In this document: positions 13,544-44,257 of the stretch, piece by piece
How positions within the stretch are numbered: position 1 is the first letter of the stretch
Layout of the letters: each line of letters begins with the position of its first letter
Assembly: GCA_900128585.1 (NCBI GenBank)
Contig: LT642174.1
Span: 1 to 44,257, forward strand
DNA: 44,257 bases
Origin: Stramenopiles sp. TOSAG23-3
Taxonomy: Eukaryota
Direction: 5' to 3'
The notes under the pieces: model-generated
Databases searched by the model: none
Told to the model about the DNA's origin: nothing
What the model saw: the letters and a program-made list of their open reading frames with translations, nothing else
Position numbers and translations under genes: made by a program

Positions 13544-15133
13544 TTACTTCTTCGATATTGACGCTAGGTAATCCGCAGTGAACTGATCTGCACTGACCAA
13601 TTCAAACTCAAACTTGTTCAGAATAATGGTGCTTCCAGGCTGAAGGTCCATTGGCTGAACAAATTCTTCCCCATCATCACGCAAATACTTCCGTTTCATC
13701 AGGAAGCGCCCGCCGACGATACCACTATTTCGAATAGGGGGTTCGTACACACGCATCGTCTCGTCGTTGAGAAAATACGTGATAACGAATCTACGCATGG
13801 AATCGTCAGGGTTGTCTGTAATGAGCTTTGCAGTGTAACGAAGGACCATGCCATCCTTTCCGATAAATCGGTTGTAGTCTTTCTTCGGTTGCACAGGGAG
13901 CAAACGTTTCCAGTTCAAGTCGGAGTCGGCCTTGTCCCCGTAGCCGGTGTACGGTGGCGGCTGAAGTTCGGGGCGTTCGGCCTTGATGCCGTACATGAAT
14001 TCGTTTTCTGGTTGTTGAATACCATTTTGCTCGTAAAATGCCCTCGTCTTCGGGTCGATTGCCGTGATCTTCATCTTTCGACCAAAGATATCCAACGTCA
14101 TGCCAACGCGAAATTCATGCCACCTCCAGATTGCTCCTGGTCCATGGTGCTGCCCAACCTCTCGCTTGTGAAGTTCGAGGTACTGCGTGCAGTCCTTTAA
14201 AAGCCTTTCCCTTTGCAAAAGCCTTGGGAAGAATTCCATGCCGGAGTTCGCAACTTTGGACTGGATAATAGAGACTGTGTCGTTTGCCAGGAAGTAATTC
14301 ATGGAGAAGGACAAGTGGTCGCCAAAGAGGGTATTTGTATTGTCCCACGCAAGGGCGAATCGAAGGCTGTCCTGGTCGTAGGACAAGAACTTTTCGAAAC
14401 CTTTGCTATCGTGATAGTGCTTTCCGAGCGAGGCTTCCATGAACGTTTTCGCTGGGAACATTACCTTGCCGGCCCACTGCCTAGCTTTGTAGTCGACGCG
14501 GTCTAGCACTTCTGGCGCGGCCCGGTTGGGGGCCTGGTCAATTCCGTGATCAGCGTACCAGTTGCGCGTAAATTCATCGCACGCGTACAGCAGGAAGGTC
14601 TTTCCGTAGATGGTGACCATCTGACCAATCTTAAGGTCGGACTCGTCCATCGGGGATCCGTCCTCGCGCCGCACCGATGCACGGTTCAGAAATATCCCTT
14701 GGGGGAGGCCACTGTTCTCTTGCTTCGGTTCAGAAATTTCAATCGTCCCATCTTTCCGGAAGTACTTGACCTTGACCAAACGGATGCGTTCGTTTTCTAC
14801 TTGACTTTCGCTGATCGCTTCGCGGTAAAAACCGTTGAGGCACAATATTTCCTCCAAGTCTACGTTCTGCAGGTTGCTCCCGATGTTCGTGCTGGTCCGG
14901 GCAAACCGCTGAAAGCTCGGGTCCGCAATCTTCTGCTCTAATTACACCCCTGGAATGTTCTTTCCTTCCATGTTTGCAATGGTTGCGATGGATGCACCGC
15001 CTGCCTTGCGGTAGTACAATGTTTGCTTCAACGTCTTTGCAACTTGCTGGTTCGTTGCCCGGTTCCACCCGGGAATTTTTGGCAAATCGCCTGCACTCAC
15101 GTATTGCGTCGCTACAAGTTCTGGCGCTTGCAT
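13544..15133 (-). CDS. EFHC1/EFHC2/Rib72-family axonemal protein with three DM10 domains; one in-frame TAA at 14942-14944
   Basis: N-terminal LPKIPG...KQTLYYR resembles the EFHC1 LPFLPG...QTLSYR block. Three DM10 repeats (EISEPKQENSGLPQGIFL, YFLANDTVSI...NSG, YFLNDETMRVYEPPIRNSGIVGGRFL). ORFs 14942..15133 and 13544..14857 share a frame and are separated by a single stop. No C-terminal EF-hand seen. Confidence 0.9.
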
Positions 15134-21424: not shown

Positions 21425-24400
21425 TTACAGGGCATGCATCTTTTTCAAACTTTTTTCCTTGCTATAAATGTTTACATATTTGGAGGCTATTTCATTTGCA
21501 CTGTGGTTATTGCGCAGCGCCTCATGAACGAAATGGTATTCTAGCAATTTATACCCGATCTTAATTGCACCATATTCTCTGCATAAAAGAGAAGCAATGA
21601 ATATCCTCGCCCGCGAAGGCAACACCACCAAATGTGCATTAAACAACGAAGATGCTTCTTGGCGAACGAATTGTTTGTCTGAAAATATAGCCGAGGACTC
21701 AAAACATTCTAACAGGAACGCTTTTTCAACATGTTTTTTGTCAAGCGACGTGTAATAATCCAATAGCGTTTCTGTTGTCATCTCGAGGACAGCTTTGTTT
21801 GGATCATCCCTGATGTGCAGCAATGAAACGTACAAGTCATACAAAATATCGTTTTGATCAGGAGACTGGCCCTCGGCCACCTTTCGAACGCCACTTAAAT
21901 TTAACTGTAAACCCTTTCGATAAAACGCCAACACCGATGGCAGCCCCCCACCATTTTCTCTGGTACTAGGATGGAATTCCCCTGAGAAGGAGCCCAAGAC
22001 CCTTGATAAAAGAAGAGGAGGGACACCTTTTGATGCCATCTTGGTAAAATAATTTTCAATATTGGCAAAATCGGATATCCGTTCCAATTCAAAGGCAATT
22101 TCTGAAAGATTTGATGACAGCAAAGGGTAATCGTTCATTGCCACTGATGCTTCCAATTCTTCGACAGCGCTAAGCATGCAGCGCCACCTCTTGACCTTCT
22201 CATACTCCGTCGAATCAGGCAAAAGAAGCCGGAGTGCGTCGTCGACCGTCGCACATCTAACACCCAGAGGCTGAAGGTCGTCGTTTCCCTCTGGGGACAC
22301 GAGTGACTGAACAAACTTCACTACTTGCTCCGGACTTAAATCTTTCAAAAATTCGTGGGTTAACAAATATTGCCCGACTGTATCGCTTACACGCCCCCTC
22401 TTACGGATCGCGTCACCAGCAAAATTGTTTGCAATAGATTTGCATGCCTTGAAATGGCTGAGGTTGGGCGGGGGGATTTCGCCCAAATTGACATTCTTAA
22501 CCTTGTCCAACAGTTGGGAAAAAGACATATGAACACAGTAAAAAAACACTTTCCCGTGCGACCGATCCTTTTTTGACGACGCCAATATGGCCTCAATACA
22601 AAACACACTGCACGCAAGTGCCAAGATTCTTTTGTTGCTGCCTTTATTGTCTGGGTTTGCTAACCCAGAGTAATATTTTTGAACTTCCTCTGGGAAGCCG
22701 TTTACTTTAGAAAGCGACAATGCCAGCGATAGCTGGAAGGGATACCTATCGTCCGAGTCAATTGAATCTAAACTTGACGTTACTGCAGGCGGGGGATTTC
22801 TATCCCCAGCCTTTGCATGCTTCCAAAATTTTGCAAATTGGTAAGGTTTGTGCAAATCATATAGCGATAAATTGTCTGCTTTCTTCGGTGGGGAGGAGTT
22901 TGGCACGAGCGCCTTCCACGTCCGCAAAACCGTTTGTAGTTCACTACCCGGACAGCTTGCAATGAGTTTTTTCATAATCTTTTGCTTGCTGCTGTGGTTG
23001 GCCCAACGCTTATCTTGTAAAAACAGCAGTGTCTTCTTACATATATCATGTTGCGTCTTAGCGGAGCATTTGACATCTAACAGTGACAGAATAAGCCGCG
23101 CGGCTTCTGGAAAATCGCCGGCTTGAATTGCACCGTTAAGAAGCATGAGTTGTATCTGAGCATTTCCATCTAAGGCATCATTTATATTTAACAACACACA
23201 AAGCTTCCTAACGGATGCGGCGTCTGCGTAAATTGATGGGTTGTCTTTCAACACCCTGGCAATAACATCACTACGATTGTTCATCAGACGCAGTTGTAGT
23301 GGCAAAAGAGACGATCCAAGATTAGTTATGAGCATGGACGCTTCAATCAAGTGCAGCTCTGCCATTATTTTGTCTCCCAGTTTTGGAGCCATGTTAAGTG
23401 TTTGTTTTGCATGCCCAAGCGCAGGATCCTGAGCCCCAGAAGCGCTGTTAAAGAACTCGATGGAAATATCCAACAATATCTGCTCGATGCTTTCGTGGGT
23501 CAGAGTTTGCCCGCCGGTGCCATCAGTAAAACTGTCTCTAGACAGCATGCTTGAGGCAACTTTGAAGTGACAATTTCCAACGAGATGTTTCAACACCATT
23601 TGGTGGCAAAAGGAGAGAGGGATGGATGGTAAGGCTACCCTAATATATCTCAAATCTTCCATCAATCGGTTAATTTTTAAGTCTTTCCCCTGTTGTCCCT
23701 CTGCTAAAAATTTTCGGCACACGTTTTCAATAAGCAACCTTCCTTGATTGTACGTGCTGTCGTCCGCTTCCATGTTTTCATGGGAAATAGAGTCTTCGAA
23801 TTCATCGAAGAAAGAGATCAGGGGGGATATACCGTACGTTCGCAGTACTTCTACTGCATTCAGATGCACATCAAGTTTGTCAACCCTTCGGTCTAACTCT
23901 TCAATCCCAGTAAACTCCGTTCTGTGTGTTTCGTTAATTACCGGTATCATGTTGAATATACCTGTCATTGCATTAACGAGGTTGACAGACGGACATGCAT
24001 ATATACACGCGAGCGCCGTCCTTATCAACATGGGCGGTTGTCGAATAATTGCGTCGCGGGGAGCGTTCCGTAAGTCGCATGCTTTGAAAATAGCTTCGCA
24101 CAATAAAAAACCATCCTCCCGTTTTGCAGCCTGGATCATAAAGTCAACAATCTCGTTACACCACTCCTTTTCGGTTACGCTCACGTCGTCATCGGGCCTG
24201 GCACCCATGAGTGGTACAAGAAGTTTGCGAATGCGATAAACTACATTTTCTGAATTTGCCCCGCGCAAAACAAGGTCTAGTTTGTTAGTTTTGCTTAACT
24301 CAAGCCATGACTCTAAAGAAAGACCAGAAAATGAAAATCCGTTCCCTCCAAATCCATAAACTAAACGTTCTAAACTTGACAAAGCCACCGACAACCGAAG

Positions 24401-27142
24401 AAGAACGGGACAGGGGCGTCCCACATTTCCTTTGATACATTGAAAACTGAGCCGACCTTGCACAAGGTCCAAGTAAGCCTGCTGTGTAACCTCTTCCGAA
24501 TCGAGGGCAACTTTGTCAACAATTGTTAGCCCAAGTGTACTTAGGGCCAATGCGTTAGATAACTGCCCCGAGCAAGTTTCCATTCTGTAAGCTCGGGAGA
24601 CGTACCATTTGACAACCGTGTTGGCCTGCATCAGCGCTCGGATGTTGGAATCTTCACAGGATGATGCAATGGATGACGCCCACGATACAACTTTTTCATG
24701 CTTCCTGTTTTCCAGAACTGCGCGCAGAATATGGGGATCGAAGCTCCAATCACACATGATGGATTTATACACGGCATGGTGGAAGTCCATTGTTTCAATC
24801 TTGCCCGACGCTCGGTCCATATACACGTATCTTGGGGTTTTGATGCCTGATGACAAACATGGGTGCGGCAACAGCCACCCGTAAGAATCAACTGGGACCG
24901 TGTCCGGTATGTGGTTTAATATATCAAGACGGGCATGTAGTACTTCTGTCCGCGCAATCGCAAATATACCAGCAATTGCATCAAATGCCCCATTTGAAGC
25001 TAGGACTTTGCAGTAATTCGTCAAACAACAGTCTCGATAATTGAGCCAGCTGAGCATGATACGGTCGCTATGTTGGCTTTGAAAGTGGCCGAGCAGCCAT
25101 TTGTAACTTTCCAACCGACATTTATACTTTAAAAACTGGACCCGCATGGAAATTGTTTCCCTGTGTGGTGCAATAACGTTGCCAATCTCGTCTAACACCG
25201 CGCTCATGATTGTTTCGTTTTGTGAGATTGGAGTAATTGCGCGGGTTTCACTTTCCTCCTTGCTACTTTCGCTTGTTTCGTCTTCCTCGTCGACACTCCA
25301 GTCGTCATCACTCCAACCATCTTCATCGTCGCCGGAACTTTCATCCCCCCCCCCAACACTTTCGTCGTCGCTTGGAAGCTCGCGTTCTTCCTCGTTGTCT
25401 TCGCCGGTAAACGCTTTCCCTTGGGAATTTGGTTTTTGACCAAGAATGCGAGCAAGATCGGCGCTAATATCGGGGCAGGCGGTGAGTTTCACCCCGAGAT
25501 CCAATAGCATTTCTATTACGTCAACATTTGCCTCATTGTAGGCAAGGCACTTTTGCAAGACCCACGGTCGATCTTCAATTTTGTTCAGCGTTTCGTGCAC
25601 ATCAGCAGCTGTCGCCGTGTCGCAACTATCCCATCGTCCCTTCCGTACAACATCCATCGATAAGTTGAAGTGTTCTGCAATTTCTGTCGCTTTGTTGAAC
25701 TTGCCTTGGCTAACGTACATGTTCAATAACTGGGCTTTCTCTATTCGTTGAAAATTAATAAAAGACAAAGAGTTGGCGCCAGGACGTTCTACCGATGCAA
25801 AAAGGTTCCCCTCTTCGACACGGCGCAAACAAAGTGATGTGCTGCTGATGTTCGTTGGTTCCCAAAGTGTATTCTCCGCACTTTGCCTATCAACCACAGC
25901 CACATTACCACTTCGGTACGTCAGAAAAAGTTTTCCACTCTCCCACCACGCAATACTAGTAGCATAAGTAGAAACATCATTGGTGGAGTACGATACATTT
26001 TGGGAGACAAAATTTTCGTCCTGGAAGGTCCACATATTTACAGTTCCACAAAAATCAAGGCTGGCCACCTGCAAGGCTTCGCTACCATCGCTTTCAGGCA
26101 CAATACTGAGCGAGTGCGTGAGGTGCTTCGCATCTTGGAACACTAAACGGTCTTCTGCAACCCACCCCAACAGTTGTCGAACTGCTGCCACGACTTTGCC
26201 ACAAAAACCATGTTCTTTCCGCAATGCATGGTTCTTCTTGGAAAATGTTTTTCCAGCGCCCGTTTCGGATTTCGCAACTGAAAAAAATAATTCGCCGAAC
26301 TCGCTCTCTGTCGAGTTTGTCTTGATCGTCGAAATTGCAACTTGCCGTAATGCCCCAGGCAGGGCCTTCCATGCCGACATGACAAAATTGTTTGTGTTGT
26401 TCGGGGCCTGCCCCGCCTGCCGCGTTTCCATCCCAGCAACAAAAATAAGGCGAGATGATTTACCAGCTGCCGAAACCTTTAAGCCCTGGTCCTTCATTGC
26501 CGTGCTTACCAAGGGTGGGGTGGTGCTAGCAAGCACGGGGTGGTTGTTGCCCGGGTCGACAGGGTATCTCACGACTTTGCCATTCATAGAAAACATAAAA
26601 AATTCAACATGGCACCTAGTCTTGTGCGGGCCAGTCGCCCGATGGAAAAGGATGCTAACGATGGGCCCGTCTTCGTTCTCCCTATAATATTCCGAAGAAA
26701 TCATTGCGGGCCCTAGGACACACGTGCAACTGCAATCAAAGCCCACTATACGCGTAGAACCGCGCTCATCGAGCGACAAAAAATAGAAAAAATTACCAGT
26801 CTCGCTCCAGCAAAATGGGCGGTGTTCCAACAACAGTGTATGATCGTCTTCTACATAGGCCTCGGCTGACTTTTCAACCATATTGCCACTTTCCGACAGT
26901 TGTATGACGTTAATCTGCTTCTGCTGAACCACGACTGCAAACCGCTTGTCAGGTGACGTAGAGACTAAGTACTTGGACAGCACACACTTCGAAATTGACG
27001 CATAAAGGTTACCTGCCGTTACCACCTCTGAAGTAGGTGCGTCGTTTTCATTAGATGCTTCCAACCGAACTTGATCCTCTGCGGACACGTGGACGTCACT
27101 GTGCGAGAGAAGCGTCGCAGCGGCCCGCTCCCCGCGGTCCAT
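21425..27142 (-). CDS. NBAS: NBAS / Sec39 / MIP2 family subunit of the Dsl1/NRZ Golgi-to-ER tethering complex
   Basis: 1905-aa ORF. Beta-rich N-terminus, then ATEIAEHFNLSMDVVRK, RLDILNHIPDTVPVDSYGWLLP, WYVSRAYRMETCSGQLSNALAL, EFFNSAS and LLPLQLRL, which match Sec39-domain blocks. Confidence 0.85.
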   Translation of the reverse strand: MDRGERAAATLLSHSDVHVSAEDQVRLEASNENDAPTSEVVTAGNLYASISKCVLSKYLVSTSPDKRFAVVVQQKQINVIQLSESGNMVEKSAEAYVEDDHTLLLEHRPFCWSETGNFFYFLSLDERGSTRIVGFDCSCTCVLGPAMISSEYYRENEDGPIVSILFHRATGPHKTRCHVEFFMFSMNGKVVRYPVDPGNNHPVLASTTPPLVSTAMKDQGLKVSAAGKSSRLIFVAGMETRQAGQAPNNTNNFVMSAWKALPGALRQVAISTIKTNSTESEFGELFFSVAKSETGAGKTFSKKNHALRKEHGFCGKVVAAVRQLLGWVAEDRLVFQDAKHLTHSLSIVPESDGSEALQVASLDFCGTVNMWTFQDENFVSQNVSYSTNDVSTYATSIAWWESGKLFLTYRSGNVAVVDRQSAENTLWEPTNISSTSLCLRRVEEGNLFASVERPGANSLSFINFQRIEKAQLLNMYVSQGKFNKATEIAEHFNLSMDVVRKGRWDSCDTATAADVHETLNKIEDRPWVLQKCLAYNEANVDVIEMLLDLGVKLTACPDISADLARILGQKPNSQGKAFTGEDNEEERELPSDDESVGGGDESSGDDEDGWSDDDWSVDEEDETSESSKEESETRAITPISQNETIMSAVLDEIGNVIAPHRETISMRVQFLKYKCRLESYKWLLGHFQSQHSDRIMLSWLNYRDCCLTNYCKVLASNGAFDAIAGIFAIARTEVLHARLDILNHIPDTVPVDSYGWLLPHPCLSSGIKTPRYVYMDRASGKIETMDFHHAVYKSIMCDWSFDPHILRAVLENRKHEKVVSWASSIASSCEDSNIRALMQANTVVKWYVSRAYRMETCSGQLSNALALSTLGLTIVDKVALDSEEVTQQAYLDLVQGRLSFQCIKGNVGRPCPVLLRLSVALSSLERLVYGFGGNGFSFSGLSLESWLELSKTNKLDLVLRGANSENVVYRIRKLLVPLMGARPDDDVSVTEKEWCNEIVDFMIQAAKREDGFLLCEAIFKACDLRNAPRDAIIRQPPMLIRTALACIYACPSVNLVNAMTGIFNMIPVINETHRTEFTGIEELDRRVDKLDVHLNAVEVLRTYGISPLISFFDEFEDSISHENMEADDSTYNQGRLLIENVCRKFLAEGQQGKDLKINRLMEDLRYIRVALPSIPLSFCHQMVLKHLVGNCHFKVASSMLSRDSFTDGTGGQTLTHESIEQILLDISIEFFNSASGAQDPALGHAKQTLNMAPKLGDKIMAELHLIEASMLITNLGSSLLPLQLRLMNNRSDVIARVLKDNPSIYADAASVRKLCVLLNINDALDGNAQIQLMLLNGAIQAGDFPEAARLILSLLDVKCSAKTQHDICKKTLLFLQDKRWANHSSKQKIMKKLIASCPGSELQTVLRTWKALVPNSSPPKKADNLSLYDLHKPYQFAKFWKHAKAGDRNPPPAVTSSLDSIDSDDRYPFQLSLALSLSKVNGFPEEVQKYYSGLANPDNKGSNKRILALACSVFCIEAILASSKKDRSHGKVFFYCVHMSFSQLLDKVKNVNLGEIPPPNLSHFKACKSIANNFAGDAIRKRGRVSDTVGQYLLTHEFLKDLSPEQVVKFVQSLVSPEGNDDLQPLGVRCATVDDALRLLLPDSTEYEKVKRWRCMLSAVEELEASVAMNDYPLLSSNLSEIAFELERISDFANIENYFTKMASKGVPPLLLSRVLGSFSGEFHPSTRENGGGLPSVLAFYRKGLQLNLSGVRKVAEGQSPDQNDILYDLYVSLLHIRDDPNKAVLEMTTETLLDYYTSLDKKHVEKAFLLECFESSAIFSDKQFVRQEASSLFNAHLVVLPSRARIFIASLLCREYGAIKIGYKLLEYHFVHEALRNNHSANEIASKYVNIYSKEKSLKKMHAL

Positions 27143-33813: not shown

Positions 33814-36060
33814 TTATATCACAATAGTCGTGGTATTGCCACTCGGATCGACAATTGCAGAAGCATCTGCGTCGCATGGCAAGCGGTGGGACATGTTTGT
33901 GACTGCCAGGCTGTAGTACGGGTCCATGCCCACATGAAGGCCAATAATAATAATTGACAAAAACAGACGTCTATCCTGCAATTTGAATAGAATCCCCAAA
34001 TCTACATTAGCATCTGTATTCGGTATTACTTTCTGCAAGTATTTTCCAAACATGAAGTTTCCCGCAACAGTGAAAACCGCGTACAGAAACAGAAAGAACA
34101 CGACATCCCAGTCCTTCCCCGAATGTGCAAAGTAGGGATAAACATTTCCATTGTTCGTTTGTTTTGCAATAATAAAGAACACCACAAAGACGGTAAAATA
34201 CATAACTGTAGTAAACCCGTCAATGATATTGTTCAACTTGAATTCGCACCCCATGGAAGGGTACGACCGCCGCTCCAAGTAAATTATTATGAAATCGTGG
34301 AACCGCTTTGACGACAAAACAAATTGGGTGATCACGGTCGCAAACAGGGACCCAAAGCCCATTGCGACAAAAGATGTTAAATCAGTAGCTTCTGCGAACA
34401 ATGAAATGTAGAAACTGCGCTTGAATGCGATGAAACAGAATGCCATTCTATGGCTGAGACGCCATAGCGCATAATTGTCATACCGGTTGTGTTTGCGCAC
34501 TTTGGACAGTAGGTGCCCAGGCGCGGCGGTATGCAGCGCGATGACATCTGCCTCCTCCGCTAGGACCAATCCAGAGACTTCAAAAAATTTCGTCAAGAAG
34601 TGAAAAACCCCAGTCAGTATTAGACGGTTGGTATTGCTCCCTTTGGCGTACGTAACAAAAAACGCAGAAAATATGGACAGGACCCAAAAGCAAGTGGCAG
34701 CCCATGTGGCTGTAATAGCCGTCCAGAATATCTGCTTCATTTTTTTGTTGACAAACACACGAGATGCGACTTTGACTCGACTTTTTGCTTCGAAATCAAA
34801 GGCAATCATGCTGTGGCGACGCCGTTTGTGCTCTTTCTTGCGAGCCAGTTCCTCCCCTCGCCTTTGAGCAGCGCTGACCCGCCGTGACACTTTGCGATTC
34901 GGCTTGTTTGAATTGTGTCTCTTCTCTACATCAAGGCATTCCTCCGCGTGGTGCAAAATTCGGGACTCCGTTTCGGAGGGTGTTTTGGATAAAATTCCAC
35001 GGACGTCACCCAGTGCGTCGGTCGGCTGGTCCATGTTCCACGCGTTATAACGGTCCTTAATGACAGCACTCTGTCGTTTTTGGATATGTTTTTCCGCTTT
35101 CTTCACTTCGTTTATAATTTTCCACCCGATGTAAAATAATATTTGAAACAGACCAATGGAGGTTATCACGAAATGAAACATGCTGGAATCCAGGCAATTA
35201 TCCCAAAAAGAGGTAGACCCTCGAGCAGCATAAACTATTGCGTGTACTGACACGCAGACCCCGGACATCACACACGCAAGGGCGGTTTTTTCTGGAAAAG
35301 ATAGCTTCACAATCAACTCAAACATAGAGAAAAAGAAAAACACGGCAGACATCAGCCAAAAGAACCAGTAGACAAGAAAAAGGCCGTAATGTTTATCCTG
35401 GTATGCGTCTTCATGAGCAGCGATCGGGAAGCAAATCCAGAGCCCAACTACTACAATGGGGACGAAAAACATCAAGAGCGTTTGGTTTTTAAAATTTGGG
35501 GTATGGAAAGTATCTGTATTATGGGTCCAATCGAGATTGTCTATCAGGTTCGAATGGTCATAAATATGACGAAGTTCTCTTAGCCGCTTCTCCATCATCG
35601 GCTTTGCAGAAGTTCGCATAATCTTCCAGCATTGCTTTATATGCGCCGTTTTGCGAGCTTTGTGCATCCGGAAGACCGACTGGACCTTCATAACCGCATG
35701 GATTAAGGTATTCAGTTCTTCAGCACTTTCCACGCCCAACAGTACTAACAATTTTTGATCTGTTTCGAGGAAAAGCCTTTCACTGTTTTTGCGAACAATC
35801 TTTCTGCGTCTATCACGCCCCTGTTCGTATGTTTCTAACCGCAGCTGGTCTAGTTTTGGGCTTACACGGGTCCTCAATACTTCGTGGGCTTTGTCCATTT
35901 GCACCTTATGGGCGTTTAAGCTGTTCTCTAACTCAAGCTCACTCCGTTGCTTGTTTAGTACTTCGTGGGCTTGGTCCATTTGTACCCTATGGGCGTTTAA
36001 ACTGTTCTCTAACTCAAGCTCACTCCGTTGCTTGTTTAGTACTTCGTGGGCTTGGTCCAT
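33814..36060 (-). CDS. Multi-pass membrane protein with N-terminal 27-aa repeats and an IQ-like calmodulin-binding motif; true start may be ATG 36187 across a poly-G frameshift
   Basis: 748-aa ORF. AVMKVQSVFRMHKARK IQ-like motif, about 4 hydrophobic segments, a basic cytosolic loop, then about 7 further hydrophobic segments. Confidence 0.8.
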   Translation of the reverse strand: MDQAHEVLNKQRSELELENSLNAHRVQMDQAHEVLNKQRSELELENSLNAHKVQMDKAHEVLRTRVSPKLDQLRLETYEQGRDRRRKIVRKNSERLFLETDQKLLVLLGVESAEELNTLIHAVMKVQSVFRMHKARKTAHIKQCWKIMRTSAKPMMEKRLRELRHIYDHSNLIDNLDWTHNTDTFHTPNFKNQTLLMFFVPIVVVGLWICFPIAAHEDAYQDKHYGLFLVYWFFWLMSAVFFFFSMFELIVKLSFPEKTALACVMSGVCVSVHAIVYAARGSTSFWDNCLDSSMFHFVITSIGLFQILFYIGWKIINEVKKAEKHIQKRQSAVIKDRYNAWNMDQPTDALGDVRGILSKTPSETESRILHHAEECLDVEKRHNSNKPNRKVSRRVSAAQRRGEELARKKEHKRRRHSMIAFDFEAKSRVKVASRVFVNKKMKQIFWTAITATWAATCFWVLSIFSAFFVTYAKGSNTNRLILTGVFHFLTKFFEVSGLVLAEEADVIALHTAAPGHLLSKVRKHNRYDNYALWRLSHRMAFCFIAFKRSFYISLFAEATDLTSFVAMGFGSLFATVITQFVLSSKRFHDFIIIYLERRSYPSMGCEFKLNNIIDGFTTVMYFTVFVVFFIIAKQTNNGNVYPYFAHSGKDWDVVFFLFLYAVFTVAGNFMFGKYLQKVIPNTDANVDLGILFKLQDRRLFLSIIIIGLHVGMDPYYSLAVTNMSHRLPCDADASAIVDPSGNTTTIVI

Positions 36061-36081
36061 TTGTACCCTATGCGCGTTTAA
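35878..36081. repeat. Coding tandem repeat, 81-bp unit, about 2.5 copies
   Basis: Units start at 35878, 35959 and 36040; they encode MDQAHEVLNKQRSELELENSLNAHRVQ on the minus strand. Confidence 0.95.
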
Positions 36082-37452
36082 AGTGGCAGTGAGCTCAACT
36101 TCGCTGTTTTGTTTGTCCAGCCCCCCCCCCCCCCTCCAGGAATTGTTGGTCGCCCGCGGTCAGCGGTGGGGCTTGGCCTTCATCCATGGGTGTACAGTGT
36201 GTCCCTACCTTTGCGCGTCTTGAAGAAACAACAGCAATTTCTGACTTCCACAAATTGTCACAACTTTCGCACGGTTTTCCGGTTTGCTCGGGTGCATGCT
36301 TGCCCTTCGTTGCTGAGGTGTTTATGGAAAATGTCACAGTATTATTGAAGAAGAGTCGGAAATAATATTTAAAAAATACAATAATATATATAGTTTTACA
36401 ATAATAATAAAATAATAATATGCTACCACCACCGCCGACCCACCACCGCTACGGTGTACCGGTAGCTGTCATCCCATTAACTGGTTGGGTGGCCCTGCTG
36501 GTATAACATTTAAATAGTGTCTTCTACCAAGGTTCTAGGAATCAATAATTAGCAAATGAAAGCAGGACGGAGGAAGAAGGAAGGAGGTAATCAACAACAA
36601 AAATAGAAACGATAATAAAGAATATAGTAGTAACACACTGTTGATGTCACTCTACTTCTTACTACGGTACGGTACTCGGTAAAATAAAGTTAGTTGCACA
36701 GCATTGAACATGCGCCGACCCTCTGCACTCTCCTCTCTGCACTGCAGCATATTCTTCCATTTTTACTTTTTCATTTTAATTAAGTATGTATAGCTAAATA
36801 AGGAGCTTTTGATTACATTTTTTATATCCCTTCGTGATAAAAGTTAGTAGTACGATATTATTATATACATAATTAAAAAGGAGAAATATATATTAAAGCG
36901 TATGGATATCTCCTTAATTAGTTTTTGGCGTTTTACCATCGTTTTTTAATGTTCTATTTAATTATTATTATAATGTTGTAATGTTGTAATAAAAACCAGC
37001 CTATAAAGAGTATACATTATGTACTAAAAAGAACGCGAAAGACACAAACAACAGAAAAACAAAAAAAATAATTGTTTTACGTACTTTACAAGCAAAAGTA
37101 ATGGTTATTTATTGTTGCACCACACAAAATAAAGTAGTTATTATATATAAAACATAATATATATTAATATTATTATTAAGAAGAACAACAACAAGCCAAC
37201 AAAACGAAGGCGGGTGGGACGGACCGGACGCCAGACGCCGTGTATGCCGGCCGTGCCGTGTTCGCCATTCTTCTATCCACTTTCCACATCTTCAGTCAAT
37301 CTTTCCCTACAAGTGAAAAATAAAATAAAAAATAAACCCACCCATTCGCACTTCAAAAGGCGCAAAGGTTACCCACACGACTGCAACTCTGGGTTAAAGC
37401 ATTCTTACCCCACCCATGCTTTCCCGGGCGGTGCGTTCTTACAAGTAAGGGC

Positions 37453-38856
37453 ATGAAGAAAGGGGCATTGCGAAATGCAGAAAAAAATCGAACGGCGACT
37501 TGCCCGTTTGCGAACACCATCGCCACTGTTGCTATACAACAGTACAGGAATGTCGTACAGGATATTGGTGGCATACAATTCCAACAAACAGCACTTGCTG
37601 CTTTTGTTTTGCAAATATTTGAAGAGGAGAAAGAGACTGAATTTTTGGTTGCATCGTTGGGCATCGGAACTAAATTTTTGACAAAAGAAAAGATTTTAGA
37701 GGACGTTGAAGGAGAGTGCGTCAGAGATATGCACGCCGAGGTGACAGCCCGTAGAGGCTTTGTCAGTTTTTTGTACGAGCAACTAGAAAAGTGCACTGAA
37801 AAGGAAGGGAGCATTGTTTTCGACCGCGACTTATCTGGCAACAAATTCCATCTCAAAACCAATGTACATATTCATTTTTATACTAGTTCTCAACCTTGTG
37901 GAAACGCCTGTTTGAAAAAGTTCGCAAAGAATAGAAAGGAGGGAGACCAGTATGGTACCACGTCCGCTTCGATCTGCCCGGATATAGCCCACGCGCCAAA
38001 ATCATTTTCTGCAGTCCGCGAAGGAGAAATTTCATTGCTTTTGAAGGGTTCTCCCCCTGCGTCTGAAGGACATGCTGGTAGAAATCGCATTTTGTCTCCA
38101 ACGGGAACTCATTTTGTTTCTCAAGCGAACTTTGAGGCTTCAAATTCATGTGTGCACACGTGCAGCGATAAAATCGCACGGTGGAATCTCCTCGGACTGC
38201 AAGGCAGTCTCTTGCGCCATTTTATCCCGGGCACTATTCATATGCGATCATGTACTATAGGGAGAAAATTCGGAAGACCATTTTCAGAGCGAGCGCTTTG
38301 TTGCCGGTTGCAGAATATTGAAATGCCCACGGTCAACCACCCTGTTCTACTTTGTACCAGCGTTAAACTTGACGAGTCTGTTTACGAAGGTGCCAATGCC
38401 GGCGCTGTCTTCGCAGAAACGCGTTGTATTGCATGGGCGTATGGTTCATCTGGGGCAAGTATGATAGACGGTGCAACAGGCAAACAGCTGGATGGGTCCT
38501 CATCGTTTATATCGAAACGTGCTTTTGCGCAACGTTTCGAGCATATTGTGAAGTTGCTGTGGCGGAACGGCAGAACCGCCGGTGGTGACCCAGACCAGTC
38601 TGTTCCGTACGATGAGCTCAAGCAGTTGCTGGAAACTTCATATATGGACGCAAAGGCACGCTTACTGTCAGAGCGCGGGTTTAATTTTCGCAAAGCGAGT
38701 TTTCGTTCTAGCATTGGCACATGGGTGCGCAGTCCAAGATGCCGCTCATTGATGCTGAAGCTTCCTTCGTCCTTTGTCAACGATCGACGAAATACCAAGA
38801 CTGTATCTCAACTCGCTGCGGAATCGAGGCGGAAGAAGCGAAAATTGGCAGAGTAA
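37453..38856 (+). CDS. ADAT1/ADAR-family RNA adenosine deaminase (stand-alone A_deamin domain)
   Basis: SLGIGTK, DMHAEVTARRGF (Zn-binding His, catalytic Glu), HFYTSSQPCGNA, TCSDKIARWNLLGLQGSLL, ISKRAF and YMDAKARL; C-terminal RRKKRK NLS-like motif. Confidence 0.92.
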   Translation: MKKGALRNAEKNRTATCPFANTIATVAIQQYRNVVQDIGGIQFQQTALAAFVLQIFEEEKETEFLVASLGIGTKFLTKEKILEDVEGECVRDMHAEVTARRGFVSFLYEQLEKCTEKEGSIVFDRDLSGNKFHLKTNVHIHFYTSSQPCGNACLKKFAKNRKEGDQYGTTSASICPDIAHAPKSFSAVREGEISLLLKGSPPASEGHAGRNRILSPTGTHFVSQANFEASNSCVHTCSDKIARWNLLGLQGSLLRHFIPGTIHMRSCTIGRKFGRPFSERALCCRLQNIEMPTVNHPVLLCTSVKLDESVYEGANAGAVFAETRCIAWAYGSSGASMIDGATGKQLDGSSSFISKRAFAQRFEHIVKLLWRNGRTAGGDPDQSVPYDELKQLLETSYMDAKARLLSERGFNFRKASFRSSIGTWVRSPRCRSLMLKLPSSFVNDRRNTKTVSQLAAESRRKKRKLAE

Positions 38857-38993
38857 GCATTATAGGAAAGAAAGAGCGTTTACCCGCCTTTTCCCCTCTG
38901 TGTGATATATTTATAAATAAAAATGCTTTTAAAAAAATGTAAGTTAAAAAAACGTTTTACCTCGCTTGGTAATTTGAAACCATTGTTACAATC

Positions 38994-40151
38994 TTACACG
39001 CCCGCAGCTTCGTCCGTATCGTTTTTCATTTCTCCGTAAAGCCACCCACCTGCTTCGCTTGGAGGCTGTAACACCATCTTGTACGGAACTTTAGCAGACT
39101 CTTCTTCTTCCTTCGCCTTTTGCCACATCTTATTATTTTCCTCAAAGTTCTTTAAATAAACGGCGCCAATTTTTGGCAGAAGCTTGGCCAGTAGCAGAAA
39201 CAACGGCTTTATGATGAAGGCACCAAAACCGAGCTGGCATGTTGGTGTGCTGACAGTGTCCCTATCACAGTTCATGGAGAGAGGCAAATTAAGTCGTTTT
39301 TCAGAGTCACCTTGGCCAAAAAACTCATGCATGACCAGAACGGCCCATCGCTCGCAGTACGACCAATGCTTCACGGGGTTGCTTACATCAGCACAGTGCA
39401 AAATAAAAGCAGCAAGCATTTGTTTATGCTCAGGTGAGAGGACAGCGCTCAAATCGATCCCTGCGTCTAGATCACTTTGGTCAAGGCCCGTCTCTTTCTC
39501 TTCCAAGTCTAATTTTTTGCGCTCTGCGTTCAACACCAGAAGAAAGCCCGGGAAAAACGCTTCGACGTCTTTCATCAGGGCCCCGTGTTTTGACATGTCC
39601 GTCCATTCGATCGACTGGACAAAAATCTTTTCCGAAACTTCCGTTGTTATAATGTTGTACTGTTTGACCAGAGGCAACGCAAAATCGATGGACTGGAGTT
39701 CCAATATGGACTTGTTATCGTACTTCACCGCTAAAGCATCCTGTCGGTTTACAAAATAACCGTTGTTAACGCCTGGGTGCAGCACGTCGTGGCAGAATGC
39801 AGCGGCAATCAAGCTAGTTCTTTCATTTGGAGTTAAAAATACATAGGCGGAATCATGCATGATACTGTGCGTAGTGAGCATGACGTCAAAGGCGTGCGTC
39901 AGCGTGTGGTAACTTTTGTAGCCAATGTTGTCTGGCAATTTGGCGGTCAAGTACCCGTCCCGGATTGCATCTAAAAACGCAGCCTGGTCCTCTTCACTGC
40001 TTTCACAGCGGTACCCGCTATCCCCAGAGAGCAAGGTCTTCATCACGAGGCGTTGACCTTCGACCGTCCCAGCCACCTCGAAAGCATCTACTCCAGGCTT
40101 GGCCAGGGCCTCAACAGTAAGCGCGCCTTCAGTCGATACTCCACTTCCCAT
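38994..40151 (-). CDS. Class I 3',5'-cyclic nucleotide phosphodiesterase, catalytic domain only, probably N-myristoylated
   Basis: YHTLTHAFDV, CHDVLHPGVNNGY, SILE, TDMSKH, HCADVSNP, EFFGQGDSEK and invariant Gln in CQLGF. N-terminus MGSGVS fits MGxxxS. Confidence 0.95.
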   Translation of the reverse strand: MGSGVSTEGALTVEALAKPGVDAFEVAGTVEGQRLVMKTLLSGDSGYRCESSEEDQAAFLDAIRDGYLTAKLPDNIGYKSYHTLTHAFDVMLTTHSIMHDSAYVFLTPNERTSLIAAAFCHDVLHPGVNNGYFVNRQDALAVKYDNKSILELQSIDFALPLVKQYNIITTEVSEKIFVQSIEWTDMSKHGALMKDVEAFFPGFLLVLNAERKKLDLEEKETGLDQSDLDAGIDLSAVLSPEHKQMLAAFILHCADVSNPVKHWSYCERWAVLVMHEFFGQGDSEKRLNLPLSMNCDRDTVSTPTCQLGFGAFIIKPLFLLLAKLLPKIGAVYLKNFEENNKMWQKAKEEEESAKVPYKMVLQPPSEAGGWLYGEMKNDTDEAAGV

Positions 40152-40883
40152 TCTTCTTGTGTAATTCTAATTCAATAGTTTTCGAATTACTAAATGGTCC
40201 AATCGCACTCTGAATGTTCACTTCCAATCAAAACGATTTTCGTAATCCAGTACATTTTTATTCTCATCGCCGTTCGTCTTCTTCACGTTTTATATATTTT
40301 CTCAATTTGTAATTCGTTACCACCTATAATAATATACGTATACTACTACAAGCTTTATTAATAAAAAACGTGGAGGAGGAGGATGGGGATGATGGATGGT
40401 AGTATTCATCATCATCCATCATGGAACAAAGTATATTAATATAAAATACGTACGATCGTTCCATCCATATATTATTTTCACGAGCTGTTGTTGTTCATTT
40501 TGCTGTCTTCCTGTTGGTTGTATTTTTTCACTTATTTATTATAGAATTTAGAATTTAGAATCAATAATTAGTATAATGTAATGATCGATCGATCAGTCTG
40601 TCATGTCAGTCCGTCTCAACACAAATAGAAAACATCAATGCTGTGTAAGCTATATATAGAGCTGTTTATTTGTGAGGATAACAATAAATTTATCGGTTAT
40701 ACTCAAGCGTTTTATATATAAACACAGCATAGGGATAATAAATCTAATATTCACCGTACTTTTTGTTTACATGTTACATATCAACAGCAGCTATTTGTAC
40801 ATCAAAAAAAGTACGATTATAAATTATAAATGTACAGTATACAACATCTGTAAATAGGAAAAAAAGGAGAAAGGAATTACAAT

Positions 40884-43508
40884 ATGGATGGGGGGGGGGG
40901 GGGGTCCGAAGCTTTTCTCTCAATTGGCTTCAGCGCGGAGACGTCTACCATCTACGCTTCGATATTGGCAGCAGCAAACATGGGGCATGATAACTTGATT
41001 ACCCTGACCACGGACCAACTCGTCTCGCTGAATATAACGGACAAAGCGGATATATCGCGTATTATCCACCTCAGCGAACTAGCAGCCCAGCTTGACGATG
41101 AAATCGGTTATGGAAAGGCAACCCAAAACACCAGCGGGGGAAACGCCGGTGAAAAGGAAGCGGGGGGAGAGGAAACAACGGTCGGTGACACCAATGATGA
41201 GTGGGAGAGGCTTGAAGATCCGAACACTGGAAAATATTATTATTGGAATAAGATGACCAACGTCACGTCATGGGTCAATCCCCACGCAGCCGCGCAGGTG
41301 AAGAGTGTGGCCCATAAGCATCGCCACCAAGTTATCGCTTCGGAGAGTGTCGATAATGAGGGGTACGAGAAGAAGGTTTACTACAAGGATGCCAGTGCCG
41401 CTCAATTGATTCAGGGAGCCCTGAAGGACAATTTTGTTTTTGAAAGTTTGGATGACAAAGATCGTGCTGAACTGTCAGACGCGTTCTTCCAAAGGCAAGT
41501 TCCGGCGGGGATAAACGTCATCGAACAGGGAGACAAAGGGGACTACTTTTACGTGGTCGAAAAGGGTTCATTCGATATTTTTGTAGACTCCCAAAAGGTA
41601 GTAGAAATCACTGCGGGGGGCAGCTTTGGGGAACTGGCCCTCCTTTATAACTGCCCTCGTGCAGCAACAGTACGGTCCGCCGTCGACGGGGTCCTTTGGG
41701 CGATTGATCGTAGCTCGTTCAAACATATTATCAAGGACGCTTCCGAGGCGGCGTACAAGAGCGCGAAGGAAGCCCTGCAAGACGTTCACATCTTGCGAAC
41801 GCTGAAAGAAAACCAACTGGACGCAATAGCGTCGGCGGTAAAGATTACCAGGTTCAAAGCAGGCGACTACATCATCAGGAAGGGAGATCAAGGAGAGATA
41901 TTTTACATGGTGAAAGACGGTGCGGTGATGTGCGTCATACCACCCGACCCGTCTAAAGGTCGTAGGAAAAGCAAACCAATAAAACTGGTCAAAGGGCAGT
42001 ACTTTGGAGAGCGAGCTTTGCAGCGTGGAGAACCGAGGGCGGCCGACGTAGTATGTTTGTCGGAGACGTGCACGTGCATGACCTTGGACAGGCAGGCCTT
42101 TCAAACGCTGCTTGGCCCCCTGCACCAGCTCATTGCTAACAATGTTGCGGTATCGTACTTGCAAACTATCCCGTCGTTCCAAGACAAACGCGCAGAGGAG
42201 CTGTACGCAATTGCTGAATTGGTCGAAGAAAAAGAGTTTTCTGCGGGAGCCGTCATACAAGATGAAGGAAAACCCGTGGAAAACTTGTACATTATCCGTG
42301 AAGGGGACGCGGTCGTTTACCATGACGACCAGCACGTTGCGAATTTGTGCGCGGGACAATTTTTCAATGACACCGCTATGCCGAGCAGTCGGCAGAGCGT
42401 TATGGCTTTTAACCAAGTTAGTGTCATGTGCGTGCCCCTGTCCGCAACAAATGAGCTGGCGGTAAGGAACCAACGGTGGAGTGTTGCAATCGCAAGTCCA
42501 GACACAAAGGTCCAAAAGAAAGAGAAAGTTCTAAACCCTTACGGCATACGGTTCGAAGACTTGCACGAAATCAAAGTGTTGGGGGAGGGCTCGTTTGGGC
42601 GAGTGTCCCTCGTGCAAGTCCAAAGGCCGGAAGAAAGTTTTTCTGAACCCTGGGCGTTAAAACGAATGAGCAAGGCAGTAATCGATAAGATGAAGCAGAA
42701 GAAAAACATTATGAACGAGAAAAAAATACTTGCACTGCTGGACCATCCGTTCGTTTTGGCCCTGGAAGCAACGTTTCAAGACAGCAGAAGCCTGTACATG
42801 CTTCTGGAAATCGTTCCCGGCGGCGAATTGTTCAATTATTTGGACCAGCAAGAGGGGGGCATTGTGCCCGCAACATCGGCATGGTTTTATATGGCGTGCA
42901 TGGTGTCTGCGTTCAACCATATACACTCCCAAAATGTTATTTACCGCGATATCAAATCGGAAAATGTAATGATAGACCGCGAGGGATATTTGAAAGTAAT
43001 TGACTTTGGGTTTGCAAAAGTGATTGAAAATCGCACCCATACGCTTTTGGGCACCCCGGAATATTTTGCGCCCGAAGTGCTAAAAGGGAAAGGGTATGGT
43101 TTTCCTGTTGATAATTGGGGCATAGGCATTTTGCTGTTCGAAATGCTCGTGGGATCCACCCCGTTTGCGGCCGAGGATACGGCGGTAGTGTGCAAGCGAA
43201 TTCTTCACAACGATGTACTGATTCCTGCTACAGTCACGGACCAACACTGCAGGGATTTGTTGACGAAACTTTTGGTGAAAGACCCTTTGAAGAGAATGGG
43301 CAGTAGCACGAAGCGGACAAAGGAAATTATGGCACACTCATGGTTTTCGTCGATGGACTGGAATGCATTAGAAGCGAAGAGTTACGACGCTCCGTGGACG
43401 CCGACTCTGAACGGGGGCTTCGACACGGTTGAAGTTGAGCAGTATTGGGAAGACCACGTTGAGGTAGAGGTTTACGAGAACGACTCTTCGTGGTGCGCTG
43501 AGTTTTAA
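40884..43508 (+). CDS. Single-chain cyclic-nucleotide-dependent protein kinase (PKG-like layout): SAM-like, WW, three cNMP-binding domains, AGC kinase
   Basis: WW: WERLEDPNTGKYYYWNKMTNVTSWVNP. CNB cassettes FGELALLYNCPRAATV and FGERALQRGEPRAADV plus a degenerate third. Kinase motifs GEGSFGRV, ALK, YRDIKSEN, DFGFAK, GTPEYFAPE; C-terminal WCAEF. Confidence 0.95.
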   Translation: MDGGGGGSEAFLSIGFSAETSTIYASILAAANMGHDNLITLTTDQLVSLNITDKADISRIIHLSELAAQLDDEIGYGKATQNTSGGNAGEKEAGGEETTVGDTNDEWERLEDPNTGKYYYWNKMTNVTSWVNPHAAAQVKSVAHKHRHQVIASESVDNEGYEKKVYYKDASAAQLIQGALKDNFVFESLDDKDRAELSDAFFQRQVPAGINVIEQGDKGDYFYVVEKGSFDIFVDSQKVVEITAGGSFGELALLYNCPRAATVRSAVDGVLWAIDRSSFKHIIKDASEAAYKSAKEALQDVHILRTLKENQLDAIASAVKITRFKAGDYIIRKGDQGEIFYMVKDGAVMCVIPPDPSKGRRKSKPIKLVKGQYFGERALQRGEPRAADVVCLSETCTCMTLDRQAFQTLLGPLHQLIANNVAVSYLQTIPSFQDKRAEELYAIAELVEEKEFSAGAVIQDEGKPVENLYIIREGDAVVYHDDQHVANLCAGQFFNDTAMPSSRQSVMAFNQVSVMCVPLSATNELAVRNQRWSVAIASPDTKVQKKEKVLNPYGIRFEDLHEIKVLGEGSFGRVSLVQVQRPEESFSEPWALKRMSKAVIDKMKQKKNIMNEKKILALLDHPFVLALEATFQDSRSLYMLLEIVPGGELFNYLDQQEGGIVPATSAWFYMACMVSAFNHIHSQNVIYRDIKSENVMIDREGYLKVIDFGFAKVIENRTHTLLGTPEYFAPEVLKGKGYGFPVDNWGIGILLFEMLVGSTPFAAEDTAVVCKRILHNDVLIPATVTDQHCRDLLTKLLVKDPLKRMGSSTKRTKEIMAHSWFSSMDWNALEAKSYDAPWTPTLNGGFDTVEVEQYWEDHVEVEVYENDSSWCAEF

Positions 43509-43658
43509 GAACTTCATTCTTAATAAATACAAACACCTTACGTTTTACATCACAATAAATGTACATTTACACACCCAATGGTCGACCCTTTAAAATGGGA
43601 TTAACAAAACACTATGCAGAGAGAGAGGACGTAACACACTCTAAAATCTGCGTGTATC

Positions 43659-43961
43659 TCAATAGTTGAACTTCCGCACTTTGGAGTGTTCCTGAAACAC
43701 GCCAGGAGAGGGGCCACAATCGTCTACCTTACGTTTCTTGCTAAACTGATTCTGCGCTCCCATGTATTGCGCAGTCGAATTAACCGATTGCCGGGGCAAA
43801 TGATTCTCAATATTTATCGACGGGTTGCTATAGTGCGCATTCTGCGTGGGTTCAGGGGAAGGGGCGTGGGCAGTGACCCAACTGGAACTCGAGAACTCTG
43901 CACCCTCGTGTTGCCCGCACAAATACGCTAGCCATCTGTTATGGTTGTTGCCGGACGCCAT
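43659..43961 (-). CDS. Small hypothetical protein (100 aa) with KKRK NLS-like motif
   Basis: ATG-started ORF spanning a higher-GC island, convergent on the kinase gene and flanked upstream by AT-rich sequence. No recognisable family. Confidence 0.5.
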   Translation of the reverse strand: MASGNNHNRWLAYLCGQHEGAEFSSSSWVTAHAPSPEPTQNAHYSNPSINIENHLPRQSVNSTAQYMGAQNQFSKKRKVDDCGPSPGVFQEHSKVRKFNY

Positions 43962-44257
43962 ACCCTATATATACACACACACAAAACCGTCGAAAGGGCG
44001 CTGCTTGCTATTTATTCAAATAATGCAATTTTACTTAAACGTTCGAACCATTTTAATTTTTATATTAAAGTATACCATTCATTTGACCATGATTGTCCCC
44101 CGAAAAAGAATAATTCTGTCTTCTTCTTTTTCTTCTTCTTCTTCTTCTCTTCTTCTTCTTCTATTTTTTTTTGTCCTCTTCTCCTCCTCCTCTCTCCTCA
44201 GGTCTCGTACTCAGGACTCAGGACTACTCAGGACCACATAAAATAGTAATAATCCGC

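Follow-up and report, generated by a model that had tools for sequence, protein, structure and literature searches.

What kind of cyclic-nucleotide-regulated kinase lies near the right-hand end of contig LT642174.1 from Stramenopiles sp. TOSAG23-3 (GenBank assembly GCA_900128585.1), and does its gene begin where the assembly makes it begin? The whole stretch that was analysed, positions 1 to 44,257 of the forward strand (44,257 nucleotides), is called the window here. An open reading frame (ORF) at 40884..43508 (+) encodes 874 amino acids, and its translation contains all of the motif strings given in a preliminary description of the locus, which had proposed a kinase activated by cyclic adenosine monophosphate (cAMP). 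At a probability of about 0.6, we read the gene as encoding a single-chain kinase that would be inhibited by a pseudosubstrate and activated by cyclic nucleotide, with a full FERM-WW-SAM-WW architecture that is truncated in the window. The predicted order of the complete protein is RA-like/FERM, WW, SAM-fold module, WW, inhibitor site, two intact cyclic-nucleotide-binding domains (CNB-A and CNB-B), a degenerate third (CNB-C) and an AGC kinase. The features of the gene within the window, with ORF residue numbers, are as follows.

40890..40904, no strand: run of 15 G, at which the window and independent assemblies diverge (through a join made in assembly or a ~2-kb loss)
40903..43508, + strand: the part of the real gene that lies within the window, about residues 474-1341 of a P0002-type protein plus the stop codon
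40905..41117, + strand: SAM-fold five-helix module, residues 8-78 (AlphaFold2 model, Foldseek)
41196..41282, + strand: WW domain, the second WW of the full-length protein, residues 105-133 (Pfam PF00397)
41316..41348, + strand: pseudosubstrate-like site KHRHQVIASES, residues 145-155, ~20 residues before CNB-A
41397..41759, + strand: CNB-A, ~residues 172-292; cassette GELALLYNCPRAA at 41628-41666, starting at residue 249
41760..42143, + strand: CNB-B, ~residues 293-420; cassette GERALQRGEPRAA at 42006-42044, starting at residue 375
42144..42488, + strand: CNB-C, degenerate, ~residues 421-535; FFNDTAMPSSRQSV at 42360-42401, starting at residue 493
42564..43346, + strand: AGC protein kinase domain, residues 561-821 (Pfam Pkinase, E 1.3e-62)
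43347..43505, + strand: AGC C-terminal tail ending in W-C-A-E-F, aligned to the tail of the PKA catalytic subunit (PKA-C)

The first seven codons of the ORF are ATG, GAT and five GGG, the latter belonging to the G-run, and the DNA 5′ of the run is AT-rich. The best database match, P0002 (1341 amino acids, ~99% identity), meets the ORF at SEAFL, directly after the G-run. A tblastn of P0002 against the window matches residues 463-1341 only, at 40854-43505, so the first 460-odd residues are absent from the 44-kb window; the DNA upstream of 40884 has no homology to P0002. We compared positions 36000-44257 with contigs (Logan) of three independent DNA-type marine runs (X3, X4 and X5) and one RNA run (X15). 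In all three DNA-type runs, the contig that covers the kinase matches the window only from 40903 onward, and carries between 404 and 2010 letters upstream of that position that are not in the window. The 30 letters immediately 5′ of 40903 are identical in X3, X4 and X5, and the contigs of X4 and X5 extend ~2.0 kb further upstream. By hand translation, these 30 letters read P-E-Q-E-H-N-Y-H-M and continue into W-S-E-A through the GG at 40903-40904, an exact match to P0002. The contigs from the left side, which carry a deaminase gene, a phosphodiesterase (PDE) gene and the AT-rich spacer, end at 40900-40904 (X5 record 23 at 40904, X4 record 18 at 40900). No contig among the listed pieces of X3, X4 and X5 bridges the 15-G run.

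Because the independent contigs continue in frame upstream of 40903, the SAM-like part lies within the protein, not at its start, and the window contains a truncated gene. The uninterrupted frame in the DNA-type contigs also means that there is no intron at the junction. We take the ATG-GAT-G15 start to be an assembly product. On this reading, the gene is intron-free and encodes ~1341 residues, with its 3′ two thirds inside the window. The real gene has ~467 more residues upstream, comprising RA-like and FERM lobes and another WW domain. The SAM-like part had been described as the N-terminus, a placement that the contigs of the three runs and P0002 overturn. Gene models starting at 40884 are all affected by the junction, and an annotation taken from this assembly loses a third of the protein at the homopolymer join.

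A deletion or rearrangement at the G-run in the source organism could instead have made the short form real, as an 874-residue SAM-WW-CNB-kinase translated from the ATG at 40884. In its favour, the fractions of the sampled words of 40100-43600 found in two runs that are possible sources are 1.00 and 0.98, and the frame has an ATG 19 bases ahead of the break. These runs, however, may simply be the window's own assembly data. The frame runs on upstream in each of the three independent runs, all three related clusters are full length (1318-1367 amino acids), five homopolymer glycine codons exactly at the break point resemble a join, and the AT-rich DNA upstream of 40884 lacks P0002 homology. We regard a genuine short form as highly improbable, and the longer, truncated gene is the one discussed below. 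The ORF at 37453..38856 was considered as a missing upstream exon, with the PDE gene inside an intron, and rejected: it is an A_deamin gene, and the contigs show no intron. In a metagenome scan, the upstream DNA of P0002 found only two unrelated kinase loci, at 27% identity.

Two further clusters have the architecture of P0002, namely P0003 (64% identity, 1318 amino acids) and P0004 (59% identity, 1367 amino acids). Pfam finds RA_2, FERM_M, two WW domains, three CNB stretches and Pkinase in all three proteins. The FERM lobes F1 and F2 are represented in each by RA_2 at 31.8-41.6 bits (cut-off 27) and by FERM_M at 30.5-42.3 bits (cut-off 23.8). Lobe F3, which is PH/PTB-like, has no Pfam match in P0002, P0003 or P0004; residues 257-400 of P0002 point to PTB/IRS and FERM_C families at 0.81-0.90 in the Atlas feature search, which is a lead only. 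A motif R-R-V-S-[I/V] stands near the N-terminus of P0002 (~24-29) and at the same place in P0003 and P0004, ahead of the FERM region and outside the window. Judged by its letters, it is a textbook PKA/PKG consensus of the RII type and might serve for autophosphorylation or as a second site of inhibition.

The WW domain within the window scores 35.1 bits against PF00397 (cut-off 26.9), with W107, W130 and P133 present, and the preliminary description was right to call it clear. The module in front of it is recognised by structure. No SAM family in Pfam matches the ORF at E≤1. An AlphaFold2 model built on a three-row alignment (A1) has a predicted local distance difference test (pLDDT) score of 80 and places helices at residues 2-6, 11-23, 28-31, 36-41 and 47-68, which is the SAM order. 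The listed Foldseek matches in the Protein Data Bank (PDB) are nearly all SAM domains (Anks3/Anks6, SASH1, BICC1, Eph receptors, tankyrase, CNK); the sole clear non-SAM match listed is at rank 2, the Sla1 homology domain 2. Probabilities are mostly 0.8-0.99, with template modelling (TM) scores of 0.5-0.7, a root-mean-square deviation (rmsd) of ~1-2 Å and E-values of 0.38-3. The three-sequence profile has four weak matches in the PDB, two of which are SAM domains (neurabin, E 0.25; EphB4, E 1.2), and Atlas leads at 0.81 also point to SAM families. We accept, on the strength of the model, that the region between the two WW domains has a SAM fold, and claim neither membership in a SAM sequence family nor self-association. 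The SAM pattern of the preliminary description is thus borne out as a five-helix fold, and not as a match to a curated profile. A HMMER search with the 71-residue module against 1.84 billion representatives gave 14 matches, which we rejected as relatives. The matching stretches cover parts of the query and most of the matched proteins have many of them, so we read the matches as compositional; eight of the 14 were scanned in Pfam, and seven are repeat proteins (mostly bacterial Ig/cadherin-like) and one is an ankyrin/NACHT protein.

The N-terminal combination is rare. With residues 1-560 of P0002 as the query, only the P0002, P0003 and P0004 clusters were matched among 5.8 billion sequences, within the length and word limits of the search. 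The FERM region and SAM-fold module are confined to these three among the relatives compared, while a WW domain is precomputed in seven, and a PH domain in three, of the 120 listed core homologues. In a FastTree tree of 119 rows (midpoint root, long branches flagged), the four FERM-type rows group together with 100% local support, in a clade that nests in a nine-row group (97%) with the WW-bearing P0010, P0014 and P0021. These are three of the four other WW-bearing members, and they share the subclade of the FERM-type proteins. The nearest relative outside the FERM clade, P0006, has 676 amino acids on a contig of 2299 bases and shares the Gly-to-Asn change in the third cassette described below. 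Since its contig barely exceeds it, P0006 may represent only part of a longer gene of the FERM type, and the architecture may be somewhat commoner than three clusters. A SAM-first kinase with modules of its own had been proposed for this locus. The SAM fold and the WW domain are there, and a FERM region and another WW precede them; an architecture search had also been suggested, and it found the FERM-WW-SAM-WW start in three clusters only and the core in a large family of known type.

The kinase domain contains GEGSFGRV, ALK, YRDIKSEN, DFG and TPEY, and K593, D689, K691, N694 and D707 lie in invariant catalytic columns of a 119-row alignment of homologues (A2), in which the terminal Phe of the tail is nearly invariant. 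Among solved structures, the best match to the isolated kinase domain is PKA-C alpha at 250 bits, compared with 229 for yeast TPK1 and 225-227 for Plasmodium PKG. The activation loop RTHTLLGTPEY, in which a Leu for the usual Cys had been pointed out, is present at residue 717. The substitution itself is trivial, because P0004 has Cys there. The fusion of regulatory and catalytic parts stands, with three cNMP_binding stretches and Pkinase found by Pfam in one ORF.

The segment KHRHQVIASES had been described as pseudosubstrate-like, and it begins at residue 145 and is conserved as a motif across the family. PKA pseudosubstrates are numbered P-3, P-2, P0 and P+1. In A2, the K145 column is Arg in 106 of 119 rows and Lys in five, and the V150 column is Val, Ile or Leu in 109. 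The column of Q149, which would be P0, holds Asn, Ala, Gly, Asp or Gln, and Ser/Thr is never among the top residues listed. As a sequence pattern, the segment fits a pseudosubstrate with basic P-3/P-2, a non-phosphorylatable P0 and a hydrophobic P+1, as in the RI regulatory subunit of PKA.

Pfam cNMP_binding covers three stretches (E 1.4e-43; best stretch 204-284). The three domains align in order with chain residues 38-363 of Plasmodium PKG, which span its CNB-A, CNB-B and CNB-C, the third being degenerate in both, and residues 519-555 form a helix and a low-confidence linker that leads into the kinase. PRAA closes both intact cassettes, at residues 258-261 and 384-387, as had been reported. 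G249, R259, A261 and G375 are invariant over the 119 rows, and E250, E376 and R385 are nearly so. CNB-C is modelled as a beta-sandwich (pLDDT 82-95), and the loss of its signature also holds: Asn-Asp replaces Gly-Glu, and Val occupies the column of the family Arg. The Gly column of the third cassette is Gly in 111 of 119 aligned homologues and Asn in five, including this protein, and the Arg column is Arg in only 38. A basic insertion in CNB-B, PPDPSKGRRKSKPIKL, faces an eight-residue gap in Plasmodium PKG and contains RRKS (41961-41972, ORF residues 360-363). R-R-K-S is a PKA/PKG consensus site, and the insertion is identical in P0002, P0003 and P0004 except for one residue in P0003 (N for G).

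What would the two intact cassettes bind? The preliminary description had set R-T/S-A of PKG against PRAA of PKA, and the contrast agrees with Table 1 of Kannan et al. (2007, PMC2246266), where the consensus cassettes are GELALIYGTPRAATVVA for PKA-R, GELALLYNDPRTATVIA for PKG and GERALLYDEPRSATIKA for parasite PKG. The same table has an ‘other eukaryotic’ class, GELALLYNAPRAATVVA, attached to protein kinases among others. In our alignment, the Plasmodium PKG cassettes read RSA (A), RSA (B) and RTA (D). We took a census of cassettes in 120 homologues with a regular expression, counting the cassettes by their order; one protein had no motif, which leaves n=119. The residue after the Arg in first cassettes is A in 100, S in 6, G in 5, Q in 3, R in 2, N in 2 and T in 1. 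In second cassettes it is A in 55, V in 17, S in 13, M in 7, Q in 6, I in 6, N in 5, K in 4, H in 3, L in 2 and T in 1. PRAA does not set this gene apart, because Ala after the Arg is the norm across the CNB-kinase family.

We also compared the domains with named references by their bit scores against PDB entries, a substitute for a phylogeny with PKA-R, PKA-C and PKG that does not amount to a tree. For the CNB-A/B tandem, PKA RI-beta gives 172 bits and RI-alpha 168, versus 136-138 for human PKG I, and CNB-A scores best with PKA.

The protein could nonetheless be a true PKG, with cyclic guanosine monophosphate (cGMP) as its physiological activator despite the cassette Ala and with selectivity that comes from other contacts in CNB-B. 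Apicomplexan PKGs are the best overall matches, the three CNBs line up in order with CNB-A to C of PKG, and CNB-B taken alone scores higher with PKG than with PKA RI-alpha. Relatives are named cGMP-dependent protein kinase in their sources (the names are automatic), and oomycete relatives are classed as PKG in the P. infestans kinome paper (PMC3019232). On the other side, the Thr/Ser found in all three working Plasmodium cassettes and in the published PKG consensus is absent from both cassettes here and is rare in homologues (7/119 first and 14/119 second cassettes), and PKA gives the higher scores for the kinase domain and CNB-A. A true PKG is in our view unlikely. The CNBs might also bind something other than cAMP or cGMP, e.g., a nucleoside as in trypanosomatid PKA, or the targeting modules might provide the main regulation. 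There is a precedent, in that purine nucleosides act on the regulatory subunits of trypanosomatid PKA (PMC10959531), and the family's second cassettes show wide variation in the residue after the Arg (V 17, M 7, I 6, Q 6, N 5, K 4). The canonical Gly-Glu and phosphate-binding Arg are kept in CNB-A and CNB-B, however, in the invariant or nearly invariant columns named above, and we take this to be a very remote prospect.

Returning to the pseudosubstrate-inhibited, cyclic-nucleotide-activated single chain, its resting state would have the segment before CNB-A fill the catalytic cleft, as in PKA RI and PKG I, and cyclic nucleotide on CNB-A and CNB-B would free the cleft. CNB-C would bind no nucleotide; its role would be that of a structural spacer, as for the third CNB in apicomplexan PKG. 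The FERM region, the two WW domains and the SAM module may direct the enzyme to a site at a membrane or the cortex, or into an assembly, where they would replace the AKAPs and docking domains of PKA. We lean towards cAMP as the activator, since both working cassettes have Ala where PKGs have Thr/Ser. cGMP or dual sensitivity is a possibility to be taken seriously, if not the one that we would choose, and we give hardly any weight to a ligand other than these two. Still more broadly, the protein might be a PKA holoenzyme in one chain with its own anchoring (FERM, two WW, SAM), and most ‘cGMP-dependent’ protist kinases might be single-chain cAMP effectors; we offer this tentatively, as a suggestion from cassette and domain comparisons that is more apt to prove wrong than right.

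Several points weigh against our reading, besides the word content of the possible source runs. The inhibitor segment has a pLDDT of only 52-67 in the full model, which as a whole has a pLDDT of 84 and a predicted TM score of 0.76. Both in sequence (E ~1e-135) and in fold (TM 0.56-0.62), the protein is closest overall to Plasmodium PKG. The whole-chain fold match comes with a large rmsd, so the domain arrangement differs or is uncertain. CNB-B alone scores 62-64 bits with CNB-B of PKG II and PKG I, and 49 bits with that of PKA RI-alpha. The case for cAMP turns on one selectivity position, and the domain scores are mixed. A single residue is not enough to set selectivity: HCN channels have R-T-A in the cassette and yet prefer cAMP, and CNB-A of PKG I is a poor discriminator. 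Among the targeting modules, the SAM-fold matches have Foldseek E-values of 0.4-3 from a model of three sequences, and a candidate F3 lobe is suggested by a language-model lead.

The kinase has at least 670 database proteins at E≤0.001, and the named relatives include oomycetes, diatoms, bolidophytes, Pinguiococcus, a haptophyte and a green alga. By its core, the protein belongs to a large protist family whose cassettes are of the PKA type and whose members are biochemically uncharacterised, and the FERM-WW-SAM-WW start is a rare addition to it. Among the AGC serine/threonine kinases of model organisms, none with a FERM domain is known to us, and none turned up in the literature searched. The architecture had been called unfamiliar at the outset, and rightly so: by title and abstract, no FERM-CNB-kinase was described in that literature, and no measurement of the nucleotide preference of a stramenopile CNB-kinase was found. 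According to the kinome paper, P. infestans has six PKG-class kinases with cNMP-binding domains, the class being assigned from the catalytic domain, and PKG is present in ciliates, apicomplexans and diatoms (PMC3019232). If the cassette reading is true, a large protist kinase family, many of its members from marine plankton, diatoms and oomycetes, would be mislabelled as cGMP-dependent, and cAMP signalling in these lineages would run through single-chain enzymes, not through dissociable PKA. In its FERM-WW-SAM-WW version, such a kinase would be linked to a membrane or cortical site with no AKAP involved.

The other genes identified in the window are listed below.

4165-6168, + strand: SHIPPO-repeat protein, flagellar/ciliary
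11609-13096, + strand: serine carboxypeptidase
13547-14857, − strand: three-DM10 protein, flagellar/ciliary (E 1.6e-74)
21428-27142, − strand: Sec39-domain protein of 1905 amino acids
37453..38856, + strand: adenosine-deaminase gene, editase-type (A_deamin, E 3.9e-50)
38994..40151, − strand: class I cyclic-nucleotide phosphodiesterase gene (PDEase_I, E 1.7e-57), beginning MGSGVS

The PDE gene is divergent to the kinase gene in the window and is continuous only with the left-hand contigs, and their true adjacency is uncertain because the junction at the 15-G run intervenes. Its scores with PDE4B (105 bits), PDE9A (97) and PDE7A (96) are close, so its substrate cannot be called. The flagellar/ciliary genes indicate that the organism is likely flagellated. 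At least half of the sampled words of the region occur in each of 14 runs. Two of these are candidate sources of the window; of the remaining 12, which include X3, X4 and X5, most are labelled as marine or seawater metagenomes. RNA run X15 contains a smaller share of the words, and contigs of this run match parts of the gene at ≥95% identity, which is a weak hint of expression, since such libraries can contain DNA. The host of the kinase gene is an uncultured marine protist, and probably a stramenopile.

Among known systems, apicomplexan PKG (P. falciparum and P. vivax; PDB 5dyk, 5dzc, 4rz7) is the best match in sequence (E ~1e-135) and in fold (TM 0.56-0.62), and likewise has CNBs followed by an AGC kinase in a single chain. 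It has four CNBs, with a working CNB-D adjoining the kinase, whereas the protein described here has three and no counterpart of CNB-D, and the cassettes of the apicomplexan enzyme end in RSA or RTA where those of this protein end in RAA. Our protein adds a pseudosubstrate-like site before CNB-A that is conserved in its family, and the N-terminal FERM, WW, SAM and WW modules.

The type I PKA holoenzyme shares PRAA-type cassettes in tandem CNBs, an inhibitor site at a similar distance before CNB-A, and an aromatic-x-x-Phe tail; the tandem scores 168-172 bits with RI-beta/RI-alpha and the kinase 250 bits with PKA-C alpha. PKA has separate regulatory and catalytic subunits, whereas here there is one continuous ORF with an extra, degenerate third CNB. 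No docking/dimerisation domain was detected in this protein, and its CNB-B alone is nearer to CNB-B of PKG than to that of RI-alpha.

Animal PKG I and II share the fused autoinhibitory site, two working CNBs and the AGC kinase. The segment GERALQ..E.RAA here resembles the CNB-B cassette type of animal PKG save for the Thr position. Animal PKG has Thr in its cassettes, whereas both are Ala here, and it lacks the extra degenerate CNB; it also scores lower (347 bits for PKG I-beta versus 456 for Plasmodium PKG). The N-terminus of animal PKG is a leucine-zipper dimerisation domain, whereas this protein has no leucine zipper (no coiled-coil predictor was run), and WW, SAM-fold, WW and FERM modules stand before its inhibitor site. 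An N-terminal FERM on a kinase chain is shared with FAK and JAK. In these the FERM both targets and regulates the kinase, but they are tyrosine kinases without CNBs and have no relationship to this protein beyond the domain type.

A further group is formed by the CNB-kinases of stramenopiles and other protists (oomycete, diatom and bolidophyte, including the P. infestans ‘PKG’ of PMC3019232), which have the same core at 31-47% identity: an inhibitor site, CNB-A and CNB-B with mostly RAA cassettes, a third CNB and the kinase. In the FastTree tree, the clade of this gene falls within their family. Compared with them, the third cassette of the protein described here is more degenerate, with Asn in the position where 111 of 119 have Gly.

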